NCBI RefSeq assembly: GCF_003334765.1
Contig: NZ_QOWT01000050.1
Length of the DNA stretch: 19,733 nt
From: Escherichia coli
GTDB lineage: Bacteria; Pseudomonadota; Gammaproteobacteria; Enterobacterales; Enterobacteriaceae
Strand: one strand, 5' to 3'
In this document: positions 19,637 through 19,733 of the stretch, one piece after another
Layout of the letters: each line of letters opens with the position of its first letter
Numbering within the stretch: position 1 is the first letter of the stretch
Notes under the pieces: model-generated
Told to the model about the DNA's origin: nothing
Seen by the model: only the letters and a program-made list of their open reading frames with translations
Database searches by the model: none
Position numbers and translations under genes: made by a program

Positions 19637-19675
19637 CCCCGCCACCTTTCCGGTGCGCGGGGTTTTGTCTTTTTT
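19637..19675 (+). terminator. Intrinsic (Rho-independent) terminator
   Basis: GC-rich 10-bp stem with one bulge (CCCCGCCACC / GGTGCGCGGGG), 5-nt loop TTTCC, followed by TTTTGTCTTTTTT. An additional 8-bp stem-loop GTCCGCTC-ctggcaca-GAGCGGAC lies at 19513-19536. Confidence 0.55.
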
Positions 19676-19691
19676 CACCGGGAATACATGT

Positions 19692-19733
19692 ATGAATCCG
19701 TCTGATGCCATTGAGGCAATTGAAAAACCGCTC
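19692..19733 (+). CDS. Start of an unidentified gene (first 14 codons, MNPSDAIEAIEKPL), runs off the window end
   Basis: ATG at 19692, open to the window edge, directly after the terminator. Too short to identify. Confidence 0.3.
   Translation, partial: MNPSDAIEAIEKPL

Follow-up and report, generated by a model that had tools for sequence, protein, structure and literature searches.

Leader terminators are textbook elements of bacterial gene control, a 5' stem-loop shields the mRNA from RNase E in the ompA 5' untranslated region (UTR), and the Q protein of phage lambda binds between the -35 and -10 elements. The element considered here lies at the end of a stretch of Escherichia coli DNA of 19,733 nucleotides (nt; contig NZ_QOWT01000050.1), which as a whole is called the window, where a GC-rich hairpin with a U-tract stands between a LysR-family gene and the first codons of a GTPase gene. 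In E. coli K-12, the sequence TTGAAA-15-TATCAT (two hexamers separated by 15 nt) has been assigned as a constitutive promoter of the RpoD holoenzyme in the perR-ykfA spacer (for ykfA) and in the rnlB-yfjP spacer (for yfjPQ), on the basis of a peak in genomic SELEX (systematic evolution of ligands by exponential enrichment) with the sigma70 form of RNA polymerase (Shimada et al., 2014; PMC3946193). Besides, a statement in PMC5389530 that cites Wallecha 2014 places flu under control by antitermination of IsrC. The hairpin and U-tract of the window are part of the leader of the GTPase gene and not a private terminator of the LysR gene, an assignment supported by the recurrence of the same block in thousands of genomes. 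It is also probable, to our judgment, that they constitute the intrinsic terminator of a conserved promoter-leader cassette, which would damp and insulate the GTPase gene.

A terminator-like hairpin that travels with a GTPase gene

The elements that define the locus are the following:

19637-19662, + strand: terminator hairpin (folding energy, z-score, stem probability, compensatory pairs and arm swaps)
19663-19675, + strand: U-tract TTTTGTCTTTTTT (read from the sequence; a U-rich tail occurs in most of the 39 leaders compared below)
19692-19733, + strand: first 14 codons of a GTPase gene of the YeeP/YkfA/YfjP family, which runs past the window end

The stem is formed by CCCCGCCACC (19637-19646) and GGTG-c-GCGGGG (19652-19662), which make 10 GC-rich base pairs around a TTTCC loop of 5 nt with a single bulged C at 19656, and the U-tract begins immediately 3' of the stem base G19662. 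From the end of the tract at 19675, a spacer of 16 nt (19676-19691) containing a Shine-Dalgarno (SD)-like GGGA at 19680-19683 leads to the ATG at 19692, and the LysR open reading frame (ORF; 18575-19462) stops 174 nt upstream of the stem. The initial annotation had described a hairpin and U-tract ending at 19675, an ORF beginning at 19692 after a 16-nt gap and a LysR transcript ending about 175 bp upstream, and every one of these coordinates was reproduced when 18300-19733 was read again.

The folding free energy (dG) of the hairpin is -19.5 kcal/mol (z = -3.17), none of 200 shuffles was equally stable, and for RNAs with 5' ends at 19631, 19589, 19463 or 19300 the pair probability of the stem never falls below 0.97. 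The sequence carries two signs of an intrinsic terminator, a stable GC-rich stem-loop and a U-rich tract 0-2 nt 3' of the stem, and a score of the d'Aubenton-Carafa (1990) type reached +30.8 (T-score 4.35) for the window leader versus a median of -60 for shuffled leaders. A loose terminator pattern was not enriched (3 sites in the window against 2.9 expected in shuffles), and the case therefore rests on energetics and on comparison, of which the comparison is decisive.

Extension of the sequence identified the downstream ORF, whose reality the initial annotation had left to be checked: a chromosomal island of E. coli strain D8, among others, matches the window at 100% identity, and ATG 19692 is there the RefSeq-annotated start of a 'GTPase family protein' of 290 amino acids (aa). 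Of 5,426 complete E. coli genomes, 4,176 contained megablast matches to the 271-nt query 19463-19733 (9,169 places in total), and a more sensitive search with 19589-19733 returned 9,359 places. The matched places correspond to the 5' end of GTPase-family genes, some copies of which are named 'hypothetical protein' or lack annotation. The hydrolase-LysR-GTPase arrangement of the window occurs in 104 genomes, compared with more than 4,100 genomes that have the leader. Moreover, a block of about 95 nt (19598-19691) travels with the GTPase gene whatever precedes it, the upstream neighbours elsewhere being rnlB (at K-12 yfjP), perR (at K-12 ykfA), a hypothetical gene, a divergent gene for a TonB-dependent receptor, IS66 remnants or none. 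Among the 39 leaders, the upstream ORF is co-directional in 24 and divergent in 8, and the remaining 7 have no ORF of at least 100 aa. It is because the block recurs before GTPase genes behind such differing neighbours that the hairpin was assigned to the GTPase leader.

Conservation and covariation of the proposed promoter-leader cassette

The comparison was based on 39 distinct leaders obtained from the window, K-12, 31 loci (one genome per species) and 34 loci from IMG/VR by peptide-pattern scans, representing Escherichia, Citrobacter, Yersinia, Photorhabdus, Hafnia, Serratia, Edaphovirga, Salmonella, Enterobacter, Lelliottia, Xenorhabdus, Cedecea, and Pectobacterium. A hairpin is present in each of them (dG -9.5 to -23 kcal/mol), in most it is followed by a U-rich tail, with 5 or more U among the 8 nt after the stem, and the distance from the stem end to the ATG is 27-30 nt in 37 of them. 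Two classes can be distinguished by the distance between the -10 hexamer and the stem, which is 11-13 nt in class A, including the window, and approximately 19-23 nt in class B (the yfjP/ykfA type), leaving 5-6 and 15-16 unpaired nt, respectively, between the predicted start and the stem. Class A leaders have weak SD sequences (GGGA, GAGA), class B leaders strong ones (AGGAG). In K-12 yfjP, TTGAAA-15-TATCAT is followed by AACGGCAGAACC-tcgc-GGTTCTGCCGTT, TTTGTTTTACTTTT and cagaggagtggtgATG, which is the same design in another sequence, and K-12 ykfA has a variant of the stem with a C-G to U-A exchange. The class A covariance model found exactly one copy per locus and no other match in 276 kb, and the leader was not found in a more distant GTPase group (42% identity).

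Pairing is preserved through extensive change of sequence. In an alignment of 16 class B leaders made with MAFFT and not fitted to a structure, the 12-bp stem was paired in 95.3% of cases compared with 27-52% in slid controls, 6 of the 12 pairs were changed on both sides, and the covariation score was 0.354 versus 0.182 in shuffled alignments (0 of 500 as high). For class A, MAFFT with RNAalifold brought the 5' arms out of register and predicted 5 pairs, and a covariance-model alignment and alignment-free arm swaps were used instead. The upper stems of this class include CACC/GGUG, CUCC/GGAG, AUCC/GGAU, AUUC/GAAU, and AGCC/GGCU. Across the 39 leaders there are 35 distinct stem sequences, whose own arms pair with a mean of -16.4 kcal/mol versus -8.0 kcal/mol for swapped arms, and the alignment of 41 distinct sequences that was fitted to the whole model had 80% of its cells paired, compared with 69% after shuffling (0 of 500). 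The sequence of the loop is not conserved. Altogether, these substitution patterns argue that the structure of the hairpin is under selection.

Upstream of the hairpin, the leaders share a promoter-like box with the following parts:

19598-19603, + strand: -35-like hexamer TTCCAA, separated by a 15-nt spacer from the -10 hexamer; aligns with TTGAAA of the K-12 ykfA and yfjP leaders
19619-19624, + strand: -10 hexamer TATTAT with a G at -14 (19617); corresponds to K-12 TATCAT
19603-19608, + strand: second -10-like hexamer AATAAT, a candidate for an alternative start at about 19615-19616 (from reading the alignment)
19609-19633, no strand: imperfect palindrome TTCAGGCAGATA-T-TATCTCCGTGAA around the -10 hexamer, a possible operator kept in all leaders

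The box, with the consensus AAATAATTTCAGAYAGATATYATC, is present in 39 of the 39 leaders, and conservation across genera begins at its -35-like hexamer (19598). In class A, G-14, T-12, A-11, T-10, A-8 and T-7 are invariant and position -9 alone varies (T or C), and TATCAT is equally conserved in class B with the exception of L063 (TATCAC). Among pairs with less than 75% identity at the start of the coding sequence, the box is 72% identical, compared with 58% for the first 120 nt of the coding sequence and 26% for the 60-nt upstream flank. The promoter sequence assigned by SELEX to ykfA and yfjPQ is the K-12 version of this box, and the spacing places the predicted start of the window at G19631/A19632, about 5 nt 5' of the stem. 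The second hexamer (AATAAT, AAAAAT or GATAAT in most leaders) lacks a conserved -35 partner and could start an RNA near 19616. The palindrome shows one symmetric change from A-T to T-A, at the Yersinia locus L008. Our local promoter scan demands spacers of 16-18 nt and misses the box because its spacer is 15 nt. The 16-nt gap that separates the T-tract from the ATG is too short for a promoter, so that all transcripts of the GTPase gene have to cross the terminator. A by-eye check revealed neither the ops element of RfaH nor motifs of start sites sensitive to uridine triphosphate.

A second, outer helix encloses the hairpin and joins the end of the -10 region to the SD:

19624-19633, + strand: 5' strand of the outer helix, UCUC.GUGAA, anti-SD-like, directly after the -10 (minimum free energy folds, permutation)
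19674-19683, + strand: 3' strand of the outer helix, UUCAC.GGGA, which contains the SD-like GGGA 19680-19683 (minimum free energy folds, pair counts)

It is paired in most minimum free energy folds and is kept in both classes, as CUCNGUGAA / UUCACNCUGAG in class A and CUCCUGAA / UUCAGAGGAG in class B, with one G-C pair turned into C-G between the classes. The pair counts, fitted to the model, also contain pairs changed on both sides. Own partners gave -7.7 kcal/mol, compared with -5.7 for swapped and -3.4 for shuffled ones, and exceeded 2,000 of 2,000 reassignments. The reverse complement of the 5' strand follows the 3' strand lineage by lineage, and a third similar motif further upstream, TTCAGAYAGA, is constant across lineages; this difference favours pairing over a triple protein site. 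With a start at 19631, the outer helix would form only in RNA begun further upstream, that is, in read-through RNA, which suggests that it may mask the ribosome-binding site in foreign transcripts. Accessibility of the SD averaged 0.46 in RNA with its own start versus 0.30 in read-through RNA, with no difference for the window itself and with the qualification that a longer RNA pairs more anyway, and this contrast is too weak to back such masking.

The box sequence ATTTCAGAYAGATATYATCTAGGTG also occurs twice in one 241-kb contig of IMG/VR (L074 1791-1809 and L075 2951-2969), with neither a leader of the hairpin and U-tract type nor a GTPase homologue downstream; since the search pattern should match about ten times by chance, homology of these two copies is uncertain.

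Proposed mechanism and rival explanations

Under the proposed mechanism, RNA polymerase would start at TTCCAA-15-TATTAT, with the predicted start near 19631, and after about 5 nt would transcribe the 26-nt GC-rich hairpin and then U4GUCU6, where a large share of the polymerases would release an RNA of about 40 nt. Only read-through RNA would hold the SD and ATG 19692, and the same terminator would stop transcripts arriving from upstream cargo, here LysR. The leader would thus operate as both brake and insulator, keeping the expression of the GTPase low and independent of its neighbours, and read-through would be either constitutive or increased in trans by some factor. Of this scheme, the place where transcription starts, its termination in vivo and the consequence for expression are inferred.

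The initial annotation had proposed an attenuator or leader element controlling the downstream gene. The linkage, the covariation, and the promoter-like box upstream of the hairpin bear out the leader part of this proposal, and the classical attenuator did not stand, since neither a leader peptide nor an antiterminator was found. The sole closed small ORF from 19590 onwards begins at ATG 19688, has 5 codons and lies downstream of the terminator, other leaders have no ATG at the equivalent position, and the distance from the -10 to the stem is only 11-23 nt across the leaders. Compared with -18.7 for the stem, the best competitor duplexes with RNA from further upstream reached -8.1 (5' arm) and -12.8 (3' arm), and every minimum free energy and centroid fold contains the terminator. 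In Rfam 15, no match at the gathering score was obtained for the window or the loci of the K-12 paralogues, and a permissive threshold gave matches at chance level (E > 4). The cassette is therefore a candidate cis-regulatory leader terminator absent from Rfam, leader terminators themselves not being a new principle. Attenuation by a countertranscript (pT181/pIP501 type) was considered and rejected, as L001 9900-11700 contains no promoter-like site on the - strand and the hairpin has no U-tract on its - strand side.

Several observations weigh against a leader terminator that damps and insulates the GTPase gene. The terminator score is above zero in 27 of the 39 leaders and below zero in 12, mostly because 1-2 non-U bases part the stem and the tract. 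Two Pectobacterium loci (L023 and L024, 1404-1503) and two distant IMG/VR loci (L061 and L062, about 1400-1500) have the box and the hairpin and no U-tract; the hairpin of these lineages is probably not a terminator, which means that the hairpin may act beyond termination. The statistics of covariation ignore the kinship of the sequences. The tables of a Term-seq study (Adams, 2021) list no 3' end at the K-12 yfjP and ykfA leaders; as expression of these genes is low, their regions are repetitive, and the tables are possibly incomplete, this absence counts neither for nor against termination. Additionally, a terminator about 5 nt past its own promoter and without relief is an odd design, and the conserved outer helix is not explained by a simple leader terminator.

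An alternative is that the hairpin is mainly a 5'-terminal stabilising stem-loop, a type expected within about 0-4 nt of the 5' end, followed by a U-rich S1-binding enhancer of translation for a weak SD, with termination as a side effect. The 5-6 unpaired nt left by the predicted start and the weak SDs (GGGA, GAGA) of class A, the hairpins without a U-tract in Pectobacterium, L061 and L062, and the variable loop are in agreement with such a role, but a U-tract 0-2 nt after a GC-closed stem, as found in most leaders, is the signature of an intrinsic terminator and is unneeded for stabilising, and the 15-16 unpaired nt of class B exceed what classical 5'-end protection would allow, and this class keeps its U-tract despite a strong SD (AGGAG); we regard this explanation as unlikely. 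A plain Rho-independent terminator of the LysR mRNA, its nearness to the start codon being incidental, agrees with the hairpin as the sole + strand terminator-like site from the LysR stop at 19462 to the next gene, with a 3' UTR of 175-200 nt, which is not unusual, and with the 13 loci of other genera whose co-directional upstream ORF stops within the box or 0-50 nt short of it, where the hairpin is well placed for such a function. It does not agree with the way in which the hairpin accompanies the GTPase gene whether the gene upstream is unrelated, divergent or missing, with the presence of LysR in only 104 of more than 4,100 genomes, with a conserved promoter-like box located upstream of the hairpin and not downstream, or with a fixed stem-to-ATG distance of 27-30 nt, needless for a mere 3' end. 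As the sole role of the hairpin, termination of LysR is largely refuted, and the explanation as a whole appears very unlikely; the hairpin may additionally stop LysR read-through in this window, since the loose-pattern scan of 19462-19636 gave no other + strand terminator-like site. Even less can be said for a DNA-level element (a protein-binding palindrome, a cruciform or a recombination site), which we consider scarcely credible: the GC-rich inverted repeat and the closeness to an inter-island breakpoint of homology (19589-19602) would be expected of it, yet protein sites keep their sequence and not pairing, and here the stem sequence changes freely while pairing stays, G-U pairs included, the T-tract is strand-specific and conserved on one side alone, and the breakpoint sits at the -35 box and not at the hairpin.

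A switch that depends on a factor, in which some protein or RNA of the island would act in trans to lift termination or to free the SD from the outer helix, is judged quite unlikely. The candidates for such a factor are a Q-like antiterminator loaded at the box or the protein with a ribbon-helix-helix (RHH) tail encoded upstream in other genera. In its favour, conservation of the spacer and flanks of the box goes far beyond the needs of a sigma-70 promoter, with a palindrome over the -10, the box of 13 loci adjoins co-directional ORFs of one family (about 300-400 aa, RHH-like C-terminus), no RNA-intrinsic relief was found, and the neighbouring flu leader is reported to be under antitermination. 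On the other side, no antiterminator gene turned up, with no search of the island proteins aimed at Q families, the upstream ORF family has no significant match in Pfam, NCBIfam or PHROG and no homologue in the window, and the first transcribed bases, GAATCCCCCC, have no -10-like pause hexamer by eye; the arguments for the switch are all indirect. Decidedly unlikely, in our estimation, is a combination of both layers, in which an anti-SD lying between the -10 and +1 would cause foreign read-through RNA to be terminated and masked, the gene's own transcripts would be unmasked, and an island factor would set their read-through; the candidate factor recognising the box would again be the RHH-tailed protein beside it in other genera.

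The ORFs upstream of the box in these other genera constitute one diverged and unnamed family with W-rich motifs and an RHH-like C-terminal region of about 45 aa, co-directional with the leader (L010 455-1372, L011 499-1413, L015 532-1413, L023 332-1414, and nine other loci), and a single weak match to RepB-RCR_reg (E 4e-3) was recorded. In five loci (L011, L015, L017, L023, and L024) the TAA stop lies inside the box. The family is a candidate regulator of the box.

The island module and its relation to known systems

The GTPase gene is of the YeeP/YkfA/YfjP family, which K-12 carries in its cryptic elements CP4-44, CP4-6, and CP4-57, its translation carries the P-loop GKSGAGKSS, and its homologues in Enterobacterales are 43-97% identical. 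Matches to described families are weak and generic only (Era/Der/MnmE-type in NCBIfam, and LeoA/LeoBC, also weak, in PADLOC). The reading frame is open in the 5' direction to GTG 19629 and includes GTG 19653 and TTG 19665; the N-terminal ends of homologues, together with covariation of an RNA type in 19629-19691, argue for ATG 19692 as the true start. At L070 3180-3614 and L071 3170-3604, in some E. coli islands, the same leader, together with 42 nt or more from the start of the ORF, precedes a 'hypothetical protein' of 144 aa, which is followed by a dynamin-family (LeoA-like) gene. In the identical island, the GTPase gene is followed by Ag43, DUF932, antirestriction, RadC-like JAB, DUF987, and CbeA/CbtA genes. 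YeeP/YkfA/YfjP-type genes head this conserved end module (Ag43, DUF932, antirestriction, RadC-like, CbtA/CbeA) of tRNA-linked islands. Most E. coli carry such islands, usually two and as many as seven per genome. A literature search with the K-12 gene names returned the SELEX promoter list as its sole relevant item.

The window LysR (18575-19462) is 28% identical to K-12 PerR over 253 aligned aa, and distant LysR genes thus hold the same site in two islands, PerR being directly upstream of ykfA in CP4-6. Among E. coli islands, homology begins either at 19509-19522 or at 19589-19602, and the longer form adds one further feature:

19509-19597, + strand: extra upstream block present in a subset of E. 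coli islands, including a hairpin at 19513-19536

Places covering at least 80% of the 271-nt query, with alignments from query position 47-60 (window 19509-19522), occur in 1,138 genomes, and the block is not conserved in other genera. Its hairpin is a perfect stem of 8 bp, GTCCGCTC-ctggcaca-GAGCGGAC (dG -14.9, z -3.1), which has no T-tract on the + strand, is terminator-like on the - strand and marks the start of the longer homology class; it could be a 3'-end structure of LysR. A similar CCGCTTCTGGCACAGAACGG was observed upstream of the box in L049. The phage collection gave 0 records and the plasmid collection 20, several of them of chromosome size (4.8-4.9 Mb), and this absence from phages and rarity on plasmids indicate an element of chromosomal islands.

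Beyond the window end, the small RNA IsrC/IS102 (RF00124, 70.8 bits) is located at L001 11283-11519, upstream of Ag43, and this was the only place matched by RF00124, which did not match the GTPase leader. Its terminator consists of a 12-bp stem (L001 11479-11506) with a T-tract and ends 22 nt before the Ag43 ATG at 11538. The IsrC/Ag43 leader is 1.8 kb downstream of the GTPase leader, so that a terminator closely precedes the ATG in two successive genes of the module, and the position of the IsrC/flu leader next downstream suggests leader terminators as a recurring control device of the module. As a candidate cis-regulatory RNA with covariation and a highly conserved promoter/operator box, the GTPase cassette offers a handle for the search of a factor.

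The IsrC/flu leader resembles the GTPase leader in having an intrinsic terminator a few tens of nt before the ATG, which the transcripts of the gene must pass. The two nevertheless share no sequence homology, about 200 nt precede the hairpin in IsrC versus about 5-16 nt here, and the flu promoter is phase-variable under Dam/OxyR, whereas the GTPase box resembles a plain sigma-70 promoter. The leader-peptide attenuators of trp and pyrBI and the S10 leader with L4 likewise place a terminator between the promoter and the first codon, but the GTPase leader differs from all of them in the lack of a leader peptide, of competing antiterminator and anti-antiterminator hairpins, and of a known effector protein. 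In lambda pR'-tR' (6S RNA), as proposed here, a constitutive promoter is followed by a terminator and yields a short RNA unless the polymerase is modified; the sequence between -35 and -10 is conserved in the GTPase box also, which is a resemblance only, and unlike the Q cassette of lambda the GTPase leader has no pause element visible by eye and a terminator far nearer to the start (about +6 to +45). Finally, the ompA type of 5' UTR shares with the GTPase leader a stable hairpin a few nt from the 5' end, here predicted, followed by a U-rich strand and a ribosome-binding site, and it is distinguished from the GTPase leader by the canonical U-tract fused to the stem in the latter and by the approximately 15 unpaired 5' nt of class B.

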